The translations under genes and the position numbers were made by a program. Below are positions 1-63,462 of a stretch of DNA of 64,000 nucleotides, in pieces. Source of the stretch: Escherichia phage vB_EcoM_FB; sequence record MT682711.1. One strand, 5' to 3'. Below the pieces are notes generated by a model. It was not told the DNA's origin, did not search any database, and saw only the letters and a list, made by a program, of their open reading frames with translations. Within the stretch, counting starts at the first letter, position 1, and each line of letters opens with the position of its first letter.

Positions 1-522
1 TCATGGTCTGCAACCACTAAGGAATACAATGGACGGGCCAGGTCCTTATCATCAACTTGTTTGTAGCCATTGATTACAATTTTACCATTGTCTACAGTAA
101 TAGCAAATGTATCAATACTCAGTCCAGAGGACACACGCATCAACTGCTGGTAATCTTCGGCTTTAAGGTCAAAAATAACTTCAGCCACCGGGAACGGAAT
201 AGCTTTGCTTGGGAATGCAATTGTGCTTGGGTCGGCAATAGGCCACTTAATAGTTGAACGTTGGTCTTTAATAATTAAAGTGGTTTGGTCTTCACTTACC
301 GAAACTTCAGCACTTTCAGATACCAATGACAGAATACTTAAGAAGCCGTTCAGGTCGTAGATTGCGGCTTCGATATCAAAGGTGTCATTTACAGTAGCTT
401 CACCATAACTTGCACCCGTTACTGAACGAGTTAGAATAGTGTTACCAGGTTTAAGCATGATACCTGGGTTAATACCGGAGAAGTTTTTCAGAATGTTCAG
501 AGTTTCTTTAGAGAATTTCATA
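1..522 (-). CDS. 45: DNA polymerase sliding clamp gp45, N-terminal part (gene runs past window start)
   Basis: Minus-strand translation from ATG at 522 reads MKFSKETLNILKNF..GIMLKPGNTILTRSV, matching T4 gp45 N-terminus as recalled; no stop before position 1. Confidence 0.85.
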
Positions 523-549
523 ATGTTTCCTTATCAAGTCAAAAATTAA

Positions 550-963
550 TTAAGCAATAACGATCATTTGTTTACGAATGGATTCAGGCAGAGATTCAAT
601 ATACTCTGGAATCTGGGAAGCAACAATAGCACCAGCTTCAAGCAGTTGTTCGTCAAAATCTACACAATAATCATCTTCGAGACGTTCAGAACCATCACGG
701 TCGATAACCAGTTTAGCACCTGCGGCCAGTGAATCATTATAGTGGCGACGCATAATTTCTACCCACTTATCGGATACGTCGTTATCAATGATACCGTAGA
801 GCATGAACTTAGTTTCTTGTGGAAGAGACTGCAGACGACGTGCAGAGTCGGTATCAATATTCAGTACCCATGATTTACGGATACGGTTTTGATTATGTGG
901 GTTGGAATCAGTACGAATGGTTTTAACTTGGATATCTTTAACAGTAATAGCGTTAGCAAACAT
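550..963 (-). CDS. rpbA: RpbA-like RNA polymerase-binding protein (assigned by position only)
   Basis: ORF immediately upstream of gene 45 as in T4 order; track ORF 550..1005 begins at TTG, first ATG at 963. Confidence 0.4.
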   Translation of the reverse strand: MFANAITVKDIQVKTIRTDSNPHNQNRIRKSWVLNIDTDSARRLQSLPQETKFMLYGIIDNDVSDKWVEIMRRHYNDSLAAGAKLVIDRDGSERLEDDYCVDFDEQLLEAGAIVASQIPEYIESLPESIRKQMIVIA

Positions 964-1023
964 AATATTTTCTCTCATTTGGTTGGTAGATGTATTATAA
1001 ATCAATATTTTAAAGCACTTAAT

Positions 1024-1218
1024 TTAATCAAAGTATTCATAAACGAACCAGGCAGGATTCCTGTTCGACATGATTCTATCATACTCTGACTTAAAAGCAT
1101 TTCGGAGATAATCTTCAGTAACAAGATGTTCGTCTCCAGAGAAGTTATTAACTAAAACATACCGCTTTAGTTCAGGAACGGCCAACAAATGCTGGCCTGT
1201 TATAAAATTAGAAGCCAT
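1024..1218 (-). CDS. hypothetical small protein (45.2 position)
   Basis: 64-codon ATG ORF co-directional with neighbours. Confidence 0.4.
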   Translation of the reverse strand: MASNFITGQHLLAVPELKRYVLVNNFSGDEHLVTEDYLRNAFKSEYDRIMSNRNPAWFVYEYFD

Positions 1219-1261
1219 ATAAATATCTTTATCGGTCGCTGTATCAAATAAGGATTTGATA

Positions 1262-1978
1262 ATGAATTATAAATCAATATACGAAAAGCTTATTCAACGA
1301 GCAGTTAATAGAAATTTAACTACCTATAAAGAACGTCATCACATTATACCACAATGTATGGGTGGAACGGATGACGCTTTAAACTTGGTAGACTTAACAC
1401 CTGAAGAACATTACTTGGCTCATCAGTTGTTAGTTAAAATCCATCCAGATAATGTATCACTAGTCTATGCGGCAAGAATGATGACAATTAGCTCACCAAA
1501 TGCTGATAGGTCTAAAAATAAATTATTTGGATGGCTTCGTCGTAAGAATTCAGAAGTCCAAAAGGATAAAGAATTCTCGGAAGAAACCAGAAAGAAAATG
1601 TCGATTTCTGCTTTAAAAAAGCCTAGAGTTACCTGTCCACACTGTGGTAAAACCGGTTTGGTAGGCAATATGAACAGATGGCATTTTGATAATTGTCCTA
1701 AAGGCCCTAATAAAGTGGTTCATACTATACCAAAAGAACAAAAAGATAAAATATCAAACACTTTTAAGAATAAAGTATTTGAATTGGTTAATTGCCAGTT
1801 TTGTGGTATAGAAGGTAAGAAGAGCGTTATAGTAACCCATCAATATTTTTGCAAATTAAACCCTAACCGTAAAAAGAAAGAGGACCCTAAAATAAAGTGT
1901 CCTCATTGCGATAAAGTAGGAATACCTGCCAATATGAAACGTTGGCATTTTGATAATTGCAAATTAAAGCCTCAATAA
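1262..1978 (+). CDS. HNH homing endonuclease (Mob-like) with three C-terminal zinc-finger repeats
   Basis: N-terminal KERHHIIPQCMGGTDDALNLVDLTPEEHYLAHQ HNH motif; three CxxC..W/HxFDNC repeats; track start 1256 is TTG, ATG at 1262 with AAGGA upstream. Confidence 0.75.
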   Translation: MNYKSIYEKLIQRAVNRNLTTYKERHHIIPQCMGGTDDALNLVDLTPEEHYLAHQLLVKIHPDNVSLVYAARMMTISSPNADRSKNKLFGWLRRKNSEVQKDKEFSEETRKKMSISALKKPRVTCPHCGKTGLVGNMNRWHFDNCPKGPNKVVHTIPKEQKDKISNTFKNKVFELVNCQFCGIEGKKSVIVTHQYFCKLNPNRKKKEDPKIKCPHCDKVGIPANMKRWHFDNCKLKPQ

Positions 1979-1983
1979 GAGGC

Positions 1984-3666
1984 TTATTCCAATACAGTAA
2001 ATCTACCGACCTTCTTCATTTGAAGGTGTTGTCCATACGATTGAGGGTCATGGTCCTTATGAGAAATTATAAAGATATTAGAATCTTCCAAAGAATTTAT
2101 AATATTAGATACACCTTTAATACCCTCTGCATCAAAACTTCCATCAAAAACTTCATCTAAAATTAAAGTGCTTATATGTATTCCCGAGACTCGAGAAGCA
2201 ATATCACGCCATGTAAACAATAAAGCCACATCTATTCTAGACTTTTCACCTTCACTAAATGAAGCATAACTAAAGTCTTCACGTCCACGTGATTTAATCG
2301 TCTCGTTGAATTCTTCGTCTAGGGTAAAGACGTAGTCAGCTTCCATAATCTTCAAATAAGAATTTATCTGCTTATTAAAGATAGGAATGTATTTCTTAAT
2401 AATGGAACCTTTAATACCAGTATCCTTCAACATTTCTGTCAGAATTCCACGATGATATTTTTCCATTACTAAGGACGATTTGGTAGAGACGATTTTATCA
2501 AGCTCTGCTTGAAGCGCGGCAATCTCTTCGGCATTACTTACGAACTCAGCAGCTGCTTGGTCGATTAATACTTTAACTTTTTTAGCTTTCTCTACGGCAG
2601 TAATGGCTTGTTGCTTATGAGTAGCTATCTGAGATTTAATAGCCAGCGCTTTATTACGTTGTTCGGTTACTTGGTCCTTAATGAGCTTGAGTTCTTGGTA
2701 CTGCTCATTAATCTTATCCAAAGATTTTTGAAGTTCAAAGTTCTTATCCTTAATTTTAGTAAGGATGTTTCCATGCTCTTCCAATCCTTGCATACACGTA
2801 GGGCAGTGGCCGCCTGTTTCGTATAATTTCACAACCTTAGTAAAGGTTGCCATATCATTCTTGATTGCAAATCCTTTATTGCTCAGGTCACTCATAGAGT
2901 CGCTAGGGTCATCACCAACGATGACATTGAGTAATTCATCAGTCAGGTTTTCTATATTGCCCTTCGCAGTCCTGGCTTCTTTAACTAGCTCGTCATACAT
3001 TACTTGTAGACGTGCTGCGTTCTCACCGGATAATTTACGCTGACGTTCTTCGTTGTCATTATAAATTTTAATCTGTTGGGTAATAGAATCCTGTTTAACG
3101 TCGATTACTTGGATTTGGCTATTAGTCTCACGAATCAAAGATTTGTTCAACTTATCCATATCCGCTAATACAGAAACCTCTAAGAGGTCTTCCACAAGCT
3201 TTCGGCGCGCAGGGGTCGACAAACCCATGAAAGGGGTATACCCTGCTGTACCAAGTACGACAATCTGTTTGAAACTGGTATATGACATTCCGATAAGCTG
3301 TTCAAATTCTGCTTGGAAGTCTTTACTGCTGGCAGATTCATCAAGACGTTCACCGCCACAAGAGATTTCAAAAATATTGGGTTTTTGCCCGCGCTTGATA
3401 TAGTATTCTTTGCCATCATATTCCATCCACAGTTCGACCAAAAGGTCTTTCTTATTACTTGAGTTAATCAACTGCCCTTTCTTAACATCACGAAAAGGCT
3501 TACCGAACAGAGCAAATGTAACGGCTTCAAGGAACGTAGATTTCCCAGCGCCATTTTTACCGGTGACTAAGGTCTTTTGGACCTTATCAAGTTGGATTGT
3601 AATAGATTGCTGACCTACCGACATAATATTTTTATACGTTACTTTCTTTAACTTAAACGTTTTCAT
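1984..3666 (-). CDS. 46: recombination endonuclease subunit gp46 (Rad50/SbcC-like ATPase)
   Basis: 560 aa; Walker A GKNGAGKST near N-terminus, coiled-coil middle, C-terminal signature/Walker B (LILDEVFDG); T4 position and size. Confidence 0.9.
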   Translation of the reverse strand: MKTFKLKKVTYKNIMSVGQQSITIQLDKVQKTLVTGKNGAGKSTFLEAVTFALFGKPFRDVKKGQLINSSNKKDLLVELWMEYDGKEYYIKRGQKPNIFEISCGGERLDESASSKDFQAEFEQLIGMSYTSFKQIVVLGTAGYTPFMGLSTPARRKLVEDLLEVSVLADMDKLNKSLIRETNSQIQVIDVKQDSITQQIKIYNDNEERQRKLSGENAARLQVMYDELVKEARTAKGNIENLTDELLNVIVGDDPSDSMSDLSNKGFAIKNDMATFTKVVKLYETGGHCPTCMQGLEEHGNILTKIKDKNFELQKSLDKINEQYQELKLIKDQVTEQRNKALAIKSQIATHKQQAITAVEKAKKVKVLIDQAAAEFVSNAEEIAALQAELDKIVSTKSSLVMEKYHRGILTEMLKDTGIKGSIIKKYIPIFNKQINSYLKIMEADYVFTLDEEFNETIKSRGREDFSYASFSEGEKSRIDVALLFTWRDIASRVSGIHISTLILDEVFDGSFDAEGIKGVSNIINSLEDSNIFIISHKDHDPQSYGQHLQMKKVGRFTVLE

Positions 3667-3887
3667 GTATTGTTCTCACGAATTGTTTGTTCAGCATATT
3701 CTAGCATTTCTTCGGAAGAAGCAAACACGTCGTCAAGTTCCATGGCCCATGAAACACCTTCAGAATATTCAGAAGTGACATACATAGTTCCGGTATACCA
3801 AGAACCATCCACGTCCCATTCTACATTACCGAACCAGCCATCGCCAATATGAAAATCATGTTTATACATTTTCATCATTATAAGCAT
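3663..3887 (-). CDS. hypothetical protein
   Basis: ATG ORF between 46 and 47, overlaps gene 46 start by 4 nt. Confidence 0.4.
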   Translation of the reverse strand: MLIMMKMYKHDFHIGDGWFGNVEWDVDGSWYTGTMYVTSEYSEGVSWAMELDDVFASSEEMLEYAEQTIRENNT

Positions 3888-4125
3888 CCTTGATGCATGA
3901 TTCAGCCATATGAATTAATGTTTCTGGAGTATCATCTACCATTACATTAAAGCTAAATTCCACAGCCCAATCAGTAGCAACATAAACTTTAATAAGCTCG
4001 TTGGTATCGCGAGTGCTCACGGCTTCAAACCAGAACTTAATGATATTCGTTTGGTTATCGTCATCAATAACGATGCAGTCGTGTTCTAGTTCAAGGCCTG
4101 ATTTTTTGAATTCATCTAAAGTCAT
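3862..4125 (-). CDS. hypothetical protein
   Basis: ATG ORF between 46 and 47, stop overlaps gene 47 end. Confidence 0.4.
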   Translation of the reverse strand: MTLDEFKKSGLELEHDCIVIDDDNQTNIIKFWFEAVSTRDTNELIKVYVATDWAVEFSFNVMVDDTPETLIHMAESCIKDAYNDENV

Positions 4126-5144
4126 CGTGTAACCTCATTATAAAGTTGTGCGGCCATAGTCTTAAGGGCTTTAACATCGTCTTCAGTGTGGCCATCAGGA
4201 AGGGCATCGATATAATCATACATCATATCCAAGAGGGACTTAACTTCATCTTCCTCTTCAGAATCATCGATATCAACACTGTTATCTACCTTAGACACAA
4301 TACGTAAAGAGTGAACAACCTTTTCAAGTTCAGATTCGAACTTGGTAAGCCCGTCATCAATTTTATCGACTATAACACGAACCGCAATATTTGTAAAATC
4401 TTTGTAATCGATAGTCGCATTCGGATAATGAATCTTACGATGCCAACAAGTTTCATTGATGATGAAATCCATTTTATGGGTTTCTGTATCGAAAATCCAG
4501 AAGCCACGAGGGTCGTTCTCATCACCTGCAGTCAGGGTCCATGGCGTACCAATATACTTGACGTTTGCTGCATCAGAAATGGTGTGGAAGTGACCAGACC
4601 ATACTTGCTTATACTTCTTAAGGAAATCAGGTTCTAAACCATGTGATTTCATTCCTTTATAGAAATAGAAACCATTTAATTCCCAGTGGCCAATACAGAA
4701 ATCGGCAGTAGTATTTTTGATATGGTCCATGATATCGGTCGTGTTTTCTTCACACATCCATGGAATCAAATCAATTTCTGTACCATCAAAATTAACCGTA
4801 GTAGGTTTCTCAATAACCTTGATATGGTCGTATTTACCCAGAACTTCAGAAGCAGCGTTCGGAGTCAATGTGTTTTTGTAGTGCATATCATGGTTACCAA
4901 CGACCGTATACATGGTAATGCCGTTGGCTTTAAGCAAATCGGAGATTTCGCGAGCGAATTCCATACACTTATGGGTAATTGCTTTACGAACGTCAAAGAT
5001 ATCACCGTATTGAATCCATACAGTAATGCCATTTGCTTTAGAATAATTAATAGCGTCTTGGATACCTTGACGTTGGATATTTTGTACCCACACATCATCG
5101 GCCTTCACTCCAAGGTGCCAGTCACCTGTGTTTAATATTTTCAT
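4122..5144 (-). CDS. 47: recombination endonuclease subunit gp47 (Mre11/SbcD-like phosphoesterase)
   Basis: MKILNTGDWHLG..GNHD metallophosphatase motifs; start set at ATG 5144 (ATGA overlap with upstream small ORF). Confidence 0.9.
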   Translation of the reverse strand: MKILNTGDWHLGVKADDVWVQNIQRQGIQDAINYSKANGITVWIQYGDIFDVRKAITHKCMEFAREISDLLKANGITMYTVVGNHDMHYKNTLTPNAASEVLGKYDHIKVIEKPTTVNFDGTEIDLIPWMCEENTTDIMDHIKNTTADFCIGHWELNGFYFYKGMKSHGLEPDFLKKYKQVWSGHFHTISDAANVKYIGTPWTLTAGDENDPRGFWIFDTETHKMDFIINETCWHRKIHYPNATIDYKDFTNIAVRVIVDKIDDGLTKFESELEKVVHSLRIVSKVDNSVDIDDSEEEDEVKSLLDMMYDYIDALPDGHTEDDVKALKTMAAQLYNEVTR

Positions 5145-20718: not shown

Positions 20719-20934
20719 TTAACGGTTATGTTTTAAAATACTATAAAGAGCTTCTACTTGGCTTGCATCCAGGTAAATAACATCATCATCTTGCTCAATG
20801 GAAATACCACCAGTATTACCTGCAACAAAATTGCATTCGCACACTTCAACGGGACGGTATACGTCACCAACTGGATGCTCAGGCTCCAGAACAATCACAC
20901 CATTTTCAGAATTACCACTTGGGTCGTATAACAT
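20719..20934 (-). CDS. hypothetical protein
   Basis: Track start is TTG; ATG at 20934 has GAGGAA 6 nt upstream. Confidence 0.4.
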   Translation of the reverse strand: MLYDPSGNSENGVIVLEPEHPVGDVYRPVEVCECNFVAGNTGGISIEQDDDVIYLDASQVEALYSILKHNR

Positions 20935-21025
20935 TACAGTTTCCTCGCTAACCATGAAAAGAATAAACCAATTAAAACAGGCCCTACAGCCATTATTAAC
21001 CAAGCCCAAGGTTCAAGATAGTAAA

Positions 21026-21283
21026 TCATCTCATGCTCCTGTGCCAACAATTACGTGGCTCACGTTTAAAAATTTCATCATGCATTGATTGACAACCAAC
21101 ACAATATATCACACCCTTGATAGCTTTACGTCGTGCTTCAGGAATCTCTTCATCGCAATCAAAGCAATATTCAGCGGATTCACGTTCAATAGCCACTTGC
21201 TTACGAGCGTGTACAATAGCGGCTTGTACAACCGCTTCCATTTCGAGCTGTTCGGCTCCGTCCTTTGCAAAACCGACAGCCAT
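21026..21283 (-). CDS. DksA/TraR-family C4 zinc-finger protein
   Basis: CFDCDEEIPEARRKAIKGVIYCVGC: CxxC-x17-CxxC. Confidence 0.55.
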   Translation of the reverse strand: MAVGFAKDGAEQLEMEAVVQAAIVHARKQVAIERESAEYCFDCDEEIPEARRKAIKGVIYCVGCQSMHDEIFKREPRNCWHRSMR

Positions 21284-24614: not shown

Positions 24615-25172
24615 TTAATATACCGCCTCAAACATCTTTTTAGATTTTAGGTAATTGGCCTTTTCTAGAACTTCCGAAGCATATTTACTACCTGCTTTGA
24701 AATTCCAGCCCGCATTATAAGAAGCAATCGCTTTTCTCAGGTCACCTTTGTGAACATTAATCCAATAAGACAGCTCAATGTAGGCCCAAGAGGCACTGTA
24801 CTGTCGGTTTTGGACCATACGAATTATTTCTTTATCTGACATCTTCCAACCTACCTGTTTAACACGACTTCTTAACGTAGGCAAGTAATTTTGGAACATG
24901 CCATAAGCATGGTGCTTATCTTTATTTAAACCTTGATTAATCCCAGCAGATGATTCCTGCCATAATAATCCAGCCATTATATATCCTAATCCTTTTTGAT
25001 TAGGGGTTTCTTTGAACTTTCCCGACTTTTGGTATTGTTCACCGAAAGCATACGCATAATGTAAATTATCTAGCTGGGTTTCTGTAAATACGGGTTCTGC
25101 TGCACTTACAGAAAACGAACCGCACATAATAGCCGCTATTAAAGAATATTTAAGTTTTTTTAGAAAAATCAT
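24615..25172 (-). CDS. secreted lytic transglycosylase-like protein
   Basis: Signal peptide then LLWQESS..GMFQ..YNAG motifs; track start TTG, ATG at 25172. Confidence 0.55.
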   Translation of the reverse strand: MIFLKKLKYSLIAAIMCGSFSVSAAEPVFTETQLDNLHYAYAFGEQYQKSGKFKETPNQKGLGYIMAGLLWQESSAGINQGLNKDKHHAYGMFQNYLPTLRSRVKQVGWKMSDKEIIRMVQNRQYSASWAYIELSYWINVHKGDLRKAIASYNAGWNFKAGSKYASEVLEKANYLKSKKMFEAVY

Positions 25173-25884
25173 AATCAATAAGTCCTCGGTAATCTACATT
25201 AGGGAAGCCATTCTTAATTGCGATTTTACTAAATCTTCCACACTTTGGTTTATTATTATCTACCCATAATTTATATAATTGTGAATACATTGGTTCACGC
25301 CATATAGGAGCCTTTCGCAAAGAGGCCTTTTTCCTTTCTATAGTTTCCTTAGAATTTTGTATGGCTTTAAATTTTTGTCTATTTTCAGGATTTTCAAAAT
25401 ACTTAACCCGTTTTTCAGACATTTTAGCTTTTACTTTTGGCGAATTTAAAATTTCTTTGAGCCGTTCTTTAGAGCCTTCCTTTTCAAAATATTTTATTAA
25501 AGCCTTTGAATGGGCCGCCCTATTTTCATTTTTAGAGAAGAATAAAATTTTATTAATAGATTGCAGTTTTGAAAATGATTCTTTAGCCAACTTATAATTT
25601 TCAGCATCTACAAAATAAGACCTTTGCTTTGAATTTGAAGTAGAGCTCATATTTAGCCAAGCAAAATTCAACCCGTAGTGGTTTGGATTAGCTTTGGCTA
25701 AATACATATGGGCTAAATAGTGTTCGTCAGCATAAAGCTCGACTAAATTGTCTTGGGTGTCAGGACCACCAACACAACTCGGTATTATATGGTGCTTTTC
25801 TGTATAGGCATCATTAGGTGTATCCCTAGATAAGGCAGCATTTATTATTTTATAGTAGTCATATGGATATTTTATAGTTTCCAT
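25150..25884 (-). CDS. HNH homing endonuclease (Mob-like)
   Basis: EKHHIIPSCVGGPDTQDNLVELYADEHYLAH. Confidence 0.75.
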   Translation of the reverse strand: METIKYPYDYYKIINAALSRDTPNDAYTEKHHIIPSCVGGPDTQDNLVELYADEHYLAHMYLAKANPNHYGLNFAWLNMSSTSNSKQRSYFVDAENYKLAKESFSKLQSINKILFFSKNENRAAHSKALIKYFEKEGSKERLKEILNSPKVKAKMSEKRVKYFENPENRQKFKAIQNSKETIERKKASLRKAPIWREPMYSQLYKLWVDNNKPKCGRFSKIAIKNGFPNVDYRGLIDYDFSKKT

Positions 25885-62817: not shown

Positions 62818-63462
62818 ATGAACTATAATAAGATTTACAAATCTTTAATAAATAAGGGCCTCGAAAGAGGTCTAAATAAAAAGAAGGTAGGGTTTTATAC
62901 AGAGAAGCATCATATTGTCCCTAAATCCATGGGTGGTAGTGAAGACAAATCTAATTTTGTTCTTTTAACCGCTAGAGAACATTTTGTAGCTCATCAATTA
63001 TTGTATAAAATACACAAAAACCGTTCTATGGCCCATGCTATGATTAATATGTGTGCTGATAGCACAGGTAATAGGGTTAATTCTAAGTTATTAGATTGGC
63101 ACCGTAAAGCTAAGGCTAGGGCCCAAAGCGAGATGGTTTCAGGTGAAAACCATCCTATGTATAACAAGAAACATAAAAAAGAAACATTAGAAAAAATGAG
63201 ATTGGCCAAATTAGGCGTCCCATGGACTGAAGAAGTTAAGGAATCTAGAAGAGAAGAATTACTTAAAACCTCTGAACATGCTAGGACTTTCATCGACTAT
63301 AAATCTGGCGGAGAAAATTCAGCCGCAAAGAAAATATGTATAGAAGGTATAGTATTTGATTATATGGAAGAAGCGGTTCCTTGGTGTAATATATCAAGAA
63401 GAACTCTTTTAAATAGAATCAAATCTTCAGACCCTAAATGGAGGGATTGGAATTATGTCTAA
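62818..63462 (+). CDS. HNH homing endonuclease (Mob-like)
   Basis: [32 protein letters not shown]; starts 3 nt after gene 13 stop, overlaps gene 14 start. Confidence 0.75.

Follow-up and report, generated by a model that had tools for sequence, protein, structure and literature searches.

The plus-strand open reading frame (ORF) at positions 1262 to 1978 of the 64,000-nt stretch of Escherichia phage vB_EcoM_FB DNA analyzed here (MT682711.1; hereafter “the window”) is best explained as a free-standing homing endonuclease gene (HEG) of the T4 “Mob” class that travels on a self-contained cassette and whose product cuts the 3′ end of gene 46 in HEG-less genomes. We give this reading a probability of about 80%. 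The ORF itself is a genuine gene: its product matches PHROG family 655, annotated as “homing endonuclease,” with E = 2.6e-66, it has 4065 homologs at E ≤ 0.001 in a large protein collection, and pairwise dN/dS calculated against its orthologs is 0.10 to 0.27 in the nuclease half and the finger half alike. All three results lie beyond chance, and the dN/dS values indicate that the protein is maintained by selection. An identical protein with the same neighbors was present on a contig assembled from a public sequencing run, and a protein 99% identical to the HEG product was present in a metagenome.

Bases 1 to 5000 of the window are 92 to 98% identical to Bp7, MX01, WG01, QL01, JS98, and their relatives, and the genome is that of a T4-like phage of the JS98/Bp7 group (Dhakavirus-like). 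The genes surrounding the HEG were named by annotation transfer from Bp7 and WG01 (Table 1); in the same annotations, the minus strand also carries 46.1, 46.2, and gene 47. The ORF map, the HNH motif, and the identity of the neighbors bear out the preliminary description of this locus as an HNH endonuclease gene lying antisense between 45.2 and 46. The statement made there that no other plus-strand gene exists in the first 44 kb is correct for practical purposes, as the next convincing plus-strand genes in a greedy ORF map begin in the late region at ~44.1 kb. The sole other plus-strand ORF of at least 70 amino acids (aa) in the first 44 kb (positions 20798 to 21088, 96 aa) was considered as a second gene and rejected, having no family match and an implausible composition.

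Table 1. Positions of the homing endonuclease gene, its parts, and its surroundings in the window.
Feature	Position	Strand	Remarks
rpbA	550-978	-	Annotation transferred from Bp7/WG01
Gene 45.2	1024-1218	-	64 aa; annotation transferred from Bp7/WG01
Candidate T4-type late promoter motif TATAAATA	1218-1225	+	36 nt before the HEG ATG; overlaps the opposite-strand start codon of 45.2
Conserved 5′ leader TTTATC..GCTGTATCAAATAAGGA	1226-1261	+	Shine-Dalgarno AAGGA at 1250-1254; found in seven HEG+ phages of six genera
Free-standing HEG	1262-1978	+	ATG at 1262, TAA at 1976-1978, stop codon counted; 238 aa
Mob-type HNH (beta-beta-alpha-Me) catalytic domain	1262-1561	+	aa 1-100; putative catalytic H26, H27, N41, H50
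NUMOD3-like helix FSEETRKKMSISALK	1574-1618	+	aa 105-119, before finger 1; predicted helix 107-119; aligns with SEETRLKMSKS of T4 MobE
Zinc finger 1, CPHCGKTGLVGNMNRWHFDNC	1625-1699	+	aa 122-146; CX2CX12HX3C; Cys module aa 125-145
Second NUMOD3-like helix	1733-1768	+	aa 158-169, before finger 2; predicted helix
Zinc finger 2, divergent type, CQFCGIEGKKSVIVTHQYFC	1784-1855	+	aa 175-198; CX2CX11HX3C; Cys module aa 178-197; corresponds to the first I-TevIII finger
Zinc finger 3, CPHCDKVGIPANMKRWHFDNC	1889-1963	+	aa 210-234; CX2CX12HX3C; Cys module aa 213-233; corresponds to the second I-TevIII finger
Hairpin AAGCCTC-AATAA-GAGGCTT	1967-1985		Over the convergent HEG and gene 46 stop codons; -10.5 kcal/mol, z = -3.4, 1 of 200 shuffles as good
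Gene 46	1984-3666	-	SbcC/Rad50-like recombination nuclease subunit, 560 aa, intact; annotation transferred from Bp7/WG01
HEG-linked foreign tract (last 273 nt of gene 46)	1984-2256	-	Presumed co-conversion tract; the homing target of HEG-less alleles likely lies here

The HEG is present in the Dhakaviruses Bp7 (where the ortholog is F392_gp161), MX01, IME281, KIT01, and 04086 and absent from WG01, QL01, JS98, IME08, and others that are otherwise 92 to 98% identical. WG01, which lacks the HEG, has overlapping genes 46 and 45.2 (ATGA); in T4, where the HEG is also missing at 46/45.2, a 55-nt spacer is found there. The cassette lies precisely at the boundary of the two genes, with the gene 46 stop codon on one side and the 45.2 start codon on the other; it is intergenic and not part of an intron or intein. 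Five other genera (six in all) have an ortholog of 238 to 239 aa, likewise antisense, at this exact junction, as seen in Mosigvirus a20, Gaprivervirus P479, Tequatrovirus RB32 (ORF054w, “similar to mobB”), Marfavirus pzk-kv8, and Slopekvirus phiKp_1. No sign of experimental work on the orthologs at the 46/45.2 junction was found in the literature. The presence/absence polymorphism, together with the co-conversion footprint in gene 46 considered below, marks the gene, as judged from sequence comparison, as a mobile free-standing HEG, a point that the preliminary description missed.

The footprint was sought by comparing HEG-bearing and HEG-less alleles on both sides of the insertion. On the left flank, the window is 100% identical to WG01 from about base 51 to base 1209. 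The left junction lies at 1209/1210, and the first four codons of 45.2 (MASN, compared to MSD in WG01) belong to the insert. On the gene 46 side, a gapped profile of the window against WG01 contained 91 mismatches in the terminal 273 nt of the gene versus 7 in the next 427 nt. Many of the differences in this tract are silent, with an amino acid identity of 13 to 18 of 20 per block compared to a nucleotide identity of 36 to 47 of 60, and the tract is closer to T4 than to the window’s own genus. When RB32 was compared with T4, an independent pair from another genus, the terminal 270 nt of gene 46 contained 56 mismatches and the adjacent 430 nt contained 8, and the 45.2 side was essentially identical up to the start codon. 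Between Bp7 and WG01, the boundary is nearer to the gene 46 stop codon, at a distance of about 213 to 264 nt. As a comparative footprint, in a small sample made up of two independent pairs and one pair that reuses WG01 as the reference, the co-conversion tract extends 270 to 273 nt on the gene 46 side and is missing on the 45.2 side.

A one-sided tract is consistent with what is expected if the enzyme cuts in the gene 46 3′ end of HEG-less genomes. Since the flank footprint is one-sided, the homing target is probably located in the 3′ end of gene 46. There are precedents for such an arrangement: for MobE in nrdB and SegG in gene 32, co-conversion results from a cut in the neighboring conserved gene (PMC2790892). 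The tract boundaries fall in codons of the gp46 ABC-ATPase signature-motif region (FS-E/Q-GEK ... WRDIAS). At the DIAS codons, a candidate cut site, TCT is changed to GAA or GCG in most HEG+ alleles; the window, by contrast, has the GCTTCT seen in HEG-less alleles. Selection on gp46 chimeras, or linked polymorphism of old date, could also have produced the sharp, shared tract boundary, which would then not mark the position of the cut.

Against curated Pfam and NCBIfam families, the HEG protein stayed below thresholds and produced zinc-ribbon and HNH noise alone. The Pfam HNH model (PF01844) scored 12.8 bits against a cutoff of 21.4, thus failing the gathering threshold, and HNH_5 scored 12.6 bits against a cutoff of 27.5; HNH_3 (PF13392) and NUMOD3 (PF07460) gave no match at E ≤ 1. 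Despite its not being filed under the Pfam HNH, HNH_3, or NUMOD3 models, we place the protein in the HNH superfamily by its fold and its homologs. It contains an HNH-type motif, ERHHIIP...NLV...EEHYLAH, that includes H26, H27, N41, H50, and H54. All five are conserved without exception in 50 aligned homologs and map to a predicted beta-beta-alpha unit. In BLASTP comparisons, aa 1 to ~116 align with T4 MobB (48% identity, E 1e-28) and T4 MobE (46% identity, E 3e-30); the alignment with RB3 MobE covers aa 1 to ~102 (43% identity, E 2e-24). An AlphaFold2 model of the whole protein (pLDDT 91.6) consists of a beta-beta-alpha HNH core, helices at residues 107 to 119 and 158 to 169, and three hairpin-plus-helix fingers.

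The region downstream of the HNH domain had been described as a triplicated Cys module. The three Cys modules are present exactly as quoted there, but “triplicated” is a slight overstatement, as close copies are limited to fingers 1 and 3 and finger 2 is divergent. Fingers 1 and 3 are clear copies of each other (local score 118 compared to a shuffle mean of 21.9, z = 21.7, with 0 of 2000 shuffles as good), and 45 of their 63 coding bases are identical. The sequence similarity of finger 2 to fingers 1 and 3 is not significant alone (z of 1.3 to 2.1); what it has in common with them is the ligand pattern and the predicted fold. The pattern of finger 2 is one residue shorter than that of the other two, and the ligand patterns are of the I-TevIII type. 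The C-terminal finger 3 is conserved family-wide, with C213, C216, H229, and C233 invariant in 50 homologs. Residues 176 to 236 align with residues 208 to 265 of I-TevIII (BLASTP; 28 of 63 identities, 44%, E = 3e-13), including the CKLNPNR linker. The Pfam NUMOD3 model does not match the HEG protein, but the motif is carried by many of its homologs.

A separate model of fingers 2 and 3 (pLDDT 87.1) matched only classical beta-beta-alpha fingers in the PDB (TRAF-type C2HC, Rad18 UBZ, CTCF, and BCL11A). The best local fit was to Rad18 UBZ, with a root mean square deviation of 1.5 Å over 32 columns and a probability of 0.99; since the domains are very small, no PDB match of this model was significant by E-value. 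A PDB sequence search with the HEG protein returned no related solved structure, no structure of this finger on DNA was found, and a Pfam search with one homolog (P0026) revealed no dedicated finger family in the local Pfam copy. The repeat unit is not new: it is the zinc finger of I-TevIII and of Mob-class enzymes, each unit being predicted to fold as beta-beta-alpha. The CX2CX12HX3C finger is a DNA-binding module already known from homing endonucleases, among which it is shuffled, rather than a new domain.

In I-TevIII, the CX2CX12-13HX3C motifs each bind zinc, and the fingers are needed for DNA binding (PMC1865063). The C-terminal ~75 residues of that enzyme mediate dimerization, which allows an enzyme with a single HNH domain to make a double-strand break (PMC1865063). 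The view of the preliminary description that the Cys modules form a modular DNA-binding array is plausible in this light, as they appear to be separate zinc-finger units that match the I-TevIII motif. By analogy, we infer that the HEG protein itself would bind zinc and DNA.

The number of fingers per protein varies. Among the 120 closest homologs, 1 protein has none, 71 have one, 14 have two, 32 have three, 1 has four, and 1 has five. The CX2CX12HX3C finger is also joined to GIY-YIG/Seg-like endonucleases. Taken together, the finger module appears shuffled among Mob-type HNH, HNH_3 (I-TevIII), and GIY-YIG/Seg-like nucleases.

The HEG in the window is itself recombinant. Its 5′ ~455 nt (1262 to ~1718) are ~98% identical to Bp7, with a dS of 0.086 over codons 1 to 100. 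From ~1718 through fingers 2 and 3 and into the gene 46 tract, identity to Bp7 or any phage record is only 60 to 80%, and dS is about 1.6. It is conceivable, if rather doubtful, that the CX2CX12HX3C finger, which usually follows a NUMOD3-like helix, is a DNA-reading module of variable copy number and that gain, loss, or swapping of fingers reprograms the targets of homing endonucleases. If this were true, then the breakpoint between fingers 1 and 2 would be one instance of such reprogramming, having moved together with the matching gene 46 allele, and the finger array would be a phage counterpart of eukaryotic C2H2 arrays.

A gene opposed to its neighbors was expected to need a promoter of its own, and a candidate is indeed found upstream of the HEG ATG in the form of the TATAAATA motif. 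This sequence is the consensus -10 element of gp55-dependent T4 late promoters. The window contains eight copies of it, which is approximately the chance number, three of them on the plus strand. Six of the eight lie 21 to 46 nt upstream of an ORF start on the same strand; all three plus-strand copies do so, at 21 to 36 nt before a plus-strand ORF start. From the background rate, we estimate a probability of ~0.004 that a copy would fall by chance in the 60 nt before the HEG ATG. In an alignment of seven HEG+ phages from six genera, the motif is found at an equal distance from the ATG, exactly in five (Bp7, a20, RB32, and pzk-kv8 among them) and with one mismatch in two (P479 and phiKp_1). The leader that follows, TTTATC..GCTGTATCAAA.AAGGA, is kept at the same spacing in the orthologs from other genera. 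Since both the promoter motif and the leader are conserved across genera, the promoter appears to travel with the cassette.

Other regulatory elements were searched for around the HEG. A hairpin that sequesters the ribosome binding site, as in I-TevI to I-TevIII and Aeh1 mobE, was not found in the leader, which folds no better than its shuffles (z = 0.63). A comparison of the promoter and leader with HEG-less gene 46 and the junction revealed nothing above shuffles that could represent an I-TevI–style operator. No sigma-70–like or MotA-box middle promoter for 45.2 was found on the minus strand inside the HEG. At the 3′ end of the HEG, the hairpin over the convergent stop codons is kept in Bp7, a20, P479, and pzk-kv8; in RB32, another palindrome takes its place. 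Because the hairpin has no plus-strand U-tract, late transcripts may continue past it, antisense to gene 46. A scan for intrinsic terminators returned only an internal stem in the coding region of finger 3, which was judged not meaningful.

T4-type late transcription runs mostly on the strand opposite to that of early genes. The preliminary description had predicted that the antisense gene would collide with early transcription; since its promoter motif is of the T4 late type, the HEG is probably expressed late and the collision is probably avoided by timing. In T4, HEG-specific promoters are middle or late, never early, and segD is the only T4 HEG that is antisense to its neighbors (PMC2988022).

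On the preferred reading, the cassette is composed of the candidate late promoter, a leader with a ribosome binding site, the ORF, and the hairpin at the convergent 3′ ends. The protein is composed of the N-terminal Mob-type HNH domain followed by an extended putative DNA-binding region of two NUMOD3-like helices and three predicted beta-beta-alpha C2HC fingers, with fingers 2 and 3 homologous to the DNA-binding and dimerization domain of I-TevIII. Transcription of the HEG would start late, at the gp55-type promoter, and run opposite to the early and middle genes. During mixed infection with a HEG-less relative, the fingers would bind a conserved sequence in the 3′-terminal ~210 to 270 nt of the relative’s gene 46, and the HNH domain would either nick there, like MobE, or, as a dimer, cut both strands, like I-TevIII. 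Recombinational repair off the HEG+ genome would then copy the HEG together with the adjoining 3′ end of gene 46. The phage’s own gene 46 allele would be protected by its many, mostly silent, differences. Of these steps, the timing of expression, the position of the cut, and the choice between a nick and a double-strand break are those that we infer.

The one-sided footprint bears directly on an alternative that we consider unlikely, namely, that the homing endonuclease cuts at the insertion point, i.e., at the 46/45.2 overlap, with immunity conferred by the insertion alone and the gene 46 tract hitchhiking. Cleavage close to the insertion site is common, being a property of many homing endonucleases. 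The I-Bth0305I paper is also cited for this property. In addition, the insertion destroys the compact ATGA overlap of the WG01 junction. However, a cut at the junction should leave tracts on both sides, whereas co-conversion is fully one-sided in two independent pairs, with 0 differences on the 45.2 side past the first codons compared to ~270 nt on the other. The characterized free-standing HEGs of T4 also cut within a neighboring conserved gene, since MobE nicks nrdB and SegG converts from a distant site (PMC2790892).

Two further explanations concern the reason for which the gene persists. One is that the nuclease is not purely selfish but is retained mainly for its advantage to the phage, whether it shuts out relatives in a co-infection or has been domesticated into an anti-parasite nuclease; purifying selection and the exact length of 238 aa retained across genera are in keeping with this. 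T4 HEGs contribute to the exclusion of T2 (PMC2993671), and HEG-derived defense genes are found in ICP1 (PMC10448857). Yet patchy presence in very close relatives combined with a linked foreign flank is what selfish homing predicts, and we regard a mainly beneficial role as improbable; the two are not exclusive, as marker exclusion is the population-level face of homing. It is highly improbable that the gene is an inactive relic that does not cut and is passively carried, like T4 I-TevIII, even though mobE is the only one of the five T4 mob genes with demonstrated activity (PMC2988022, Table 1). The ORF is full length, the catalytic and zinc-ligand residues are all intact and invariant, dN/dS is low (0.10 to 0.27), and recombination in the HEG and its flank points to recent exchange. 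The HEG is intact and probably active.

The HEG belongs to a well-known class, and its orthologs are already annotated as homing endonucleases; taken alone, it therefore matters little. Its value is that of a clean natural example in which antisense placement and a private late promoter would fit the transcription program of the host. It also exemplifies intronless homing across genus boundaries, with the element at one site in six genera and the gene 46 tract of this Dhakavirus-like genome closer to T4 than to its own genus; a review published in 2010 stated that there was no convincing evidence for intronless homing across genera (PMC2993671). It further illustrates how nuclease and DNA-binding modules mix. 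With its boundary shared at 270 nt, the gp46 signature-motif region offers a concrete place to map cleavage by an uncharacterized Mob-class enzyme.

Among known systems, the orthologs in RB32, Bp7, MX01, KIT01, a20, and P479 are the most similar in arrangement: they share the site, antisense orientation, length of 238 aa, HNH domain with three fingers, promoter motif, and leader, with 60 to 82% amino acid identity. They differ from the window copy in that the latter is a mosaic whose finger 2-3 half and gene 46 tract are only 60 to 80% identical to anything in the phage collection. I-TevIII, from the nrdB intron of phage RB3, likewise has two C-terminal fingers, a CKLNPNR-type linker, and an N-terminal HNH domain with catalytic residues (H26, H27, N39, and H48; PMC1865063) at nearly equal positions. 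In contrast to the HEG, it is intron encoded, co-oriented with its host gene, and equipped with two fingers instead of three; its catalytic domain belongs to Pfam HNH_3 and gave no BLASTP alignment with the HEG HNH domain. T4 MobE and MobB resemble the HEG in the N-terminal domain, including the NUMOD3-like SEETR.KMS motif, and in being free-standing between conserved genes, but have no match to its finger region. MobE targets a neighboring conserved gene and gives co-conversion (PMC2790892). The mobE gene is promoterless, co-oriented, and translationally coupled to nrdA (PMC2790892, PMC2988022), whereas the HEG described here is antisense and carries its own late promoter motif. T4 segD is, like the HEG, opposed to its neighbors; it differs in belonging to the GIY-YIG family and in that no promoter of its own was found (PMC2988022).

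The free-standing homing endonuclease gene (HEG) between genes 45.2 and 46 contains a recombination breakpoint, located between the first and second zinc fingers of its product. The 5′ part of the gene is similar to that of phage Bp7 (~98% identity), and the 3′ part, together with the adjoining tract of gene 46, comes from a source lineage that has no representative above ~80% identity in the phage collection.

In Bp7 itself, the annotation divides gene 46 into two CDS (about positions 3140 to 3430 of that locus). The Bp7 gene is out of register with both WG01 and the window from about 165 nt before its 3′ end; therefore, an indel or a frameshift is present inside the HEG-linked tract. Either the sequence is in error at this point, or the gene 46 allele of Bp7 is damaged. 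In four other phages with the HEG at this junction (a20, RB32, pzk-kv8, and phiKp_1), the HEG and gene 46 converge and share 4 to 14 nt at their 3′ ends, and gp46 has 2 to 4 more amino acids than its counterparts in WG01, T4, and the window. The deposited annotation of the pzk-kv8 HEG (positions 1546 to 2262 of its locus) begins at an internal ATG, at 1669. The full pzk-kv8 open reading frame (ORF) starts at 1546 and encodes 238 amino acids with the conserved MNY N terminus; it is preceded by the T4-type late promoter motif TATAAATA.

For six of the eight copies of TATAAATA in the window, an ORF on the same strand starts 21 to 46 nt downstream; this arrangement suggests that these six are real late promoters. 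Where the early region gives way to the late region, two of them are arranged divergently. Apart from the HEG, a single plus-strand ORF of at least 70 codons is found in the first 44 kb of the window. Its product is rich in P, S, and T and has no Pfam match, no obvious ribosome binding site precedes it, and it is probably not a gene.

Features of the window (Escherichia phage vB_EcoM_FB, MT682711.1)
Feature	Position	Strand	Length (aa)	Remarks
HEG, 5′ part	1262-1718	+
HEG, 3′ part, with gene 46 tract	1719-2256
TATAAATA	1218	+		upstream of HEG
TATAAATA	30508
TATAAATA	40677
TATAAATA	44100	+		divergent pair
TATAAATA	44115	-		divergent pair
TATAAATA	61851
Rejected ORF	20798-21088	+	96
Second Mob-type HNH endonuclease ORF	25150-25884	-	244	co-oriented with early genes
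Third Mob-type HNH endonuclease ORF	62818-63462	+	214	within late-gene region

Two further Mob-type HNH endonuclease ORFs are present in the window. The product of the second shares 42% identity with the HEG protein over the N-terminal 84 amino acids of the latter (tblastn, E = 2e-16) and contains no CxxC fingers; that of the third is 37% identical to the HEG protein across amino acids 1 to 121 (E = 5e-21), again with no fingers. Thus, with one fingered and two fingerless versions, a single genome carries one nuclease domain joined to three different C-terminal regions.
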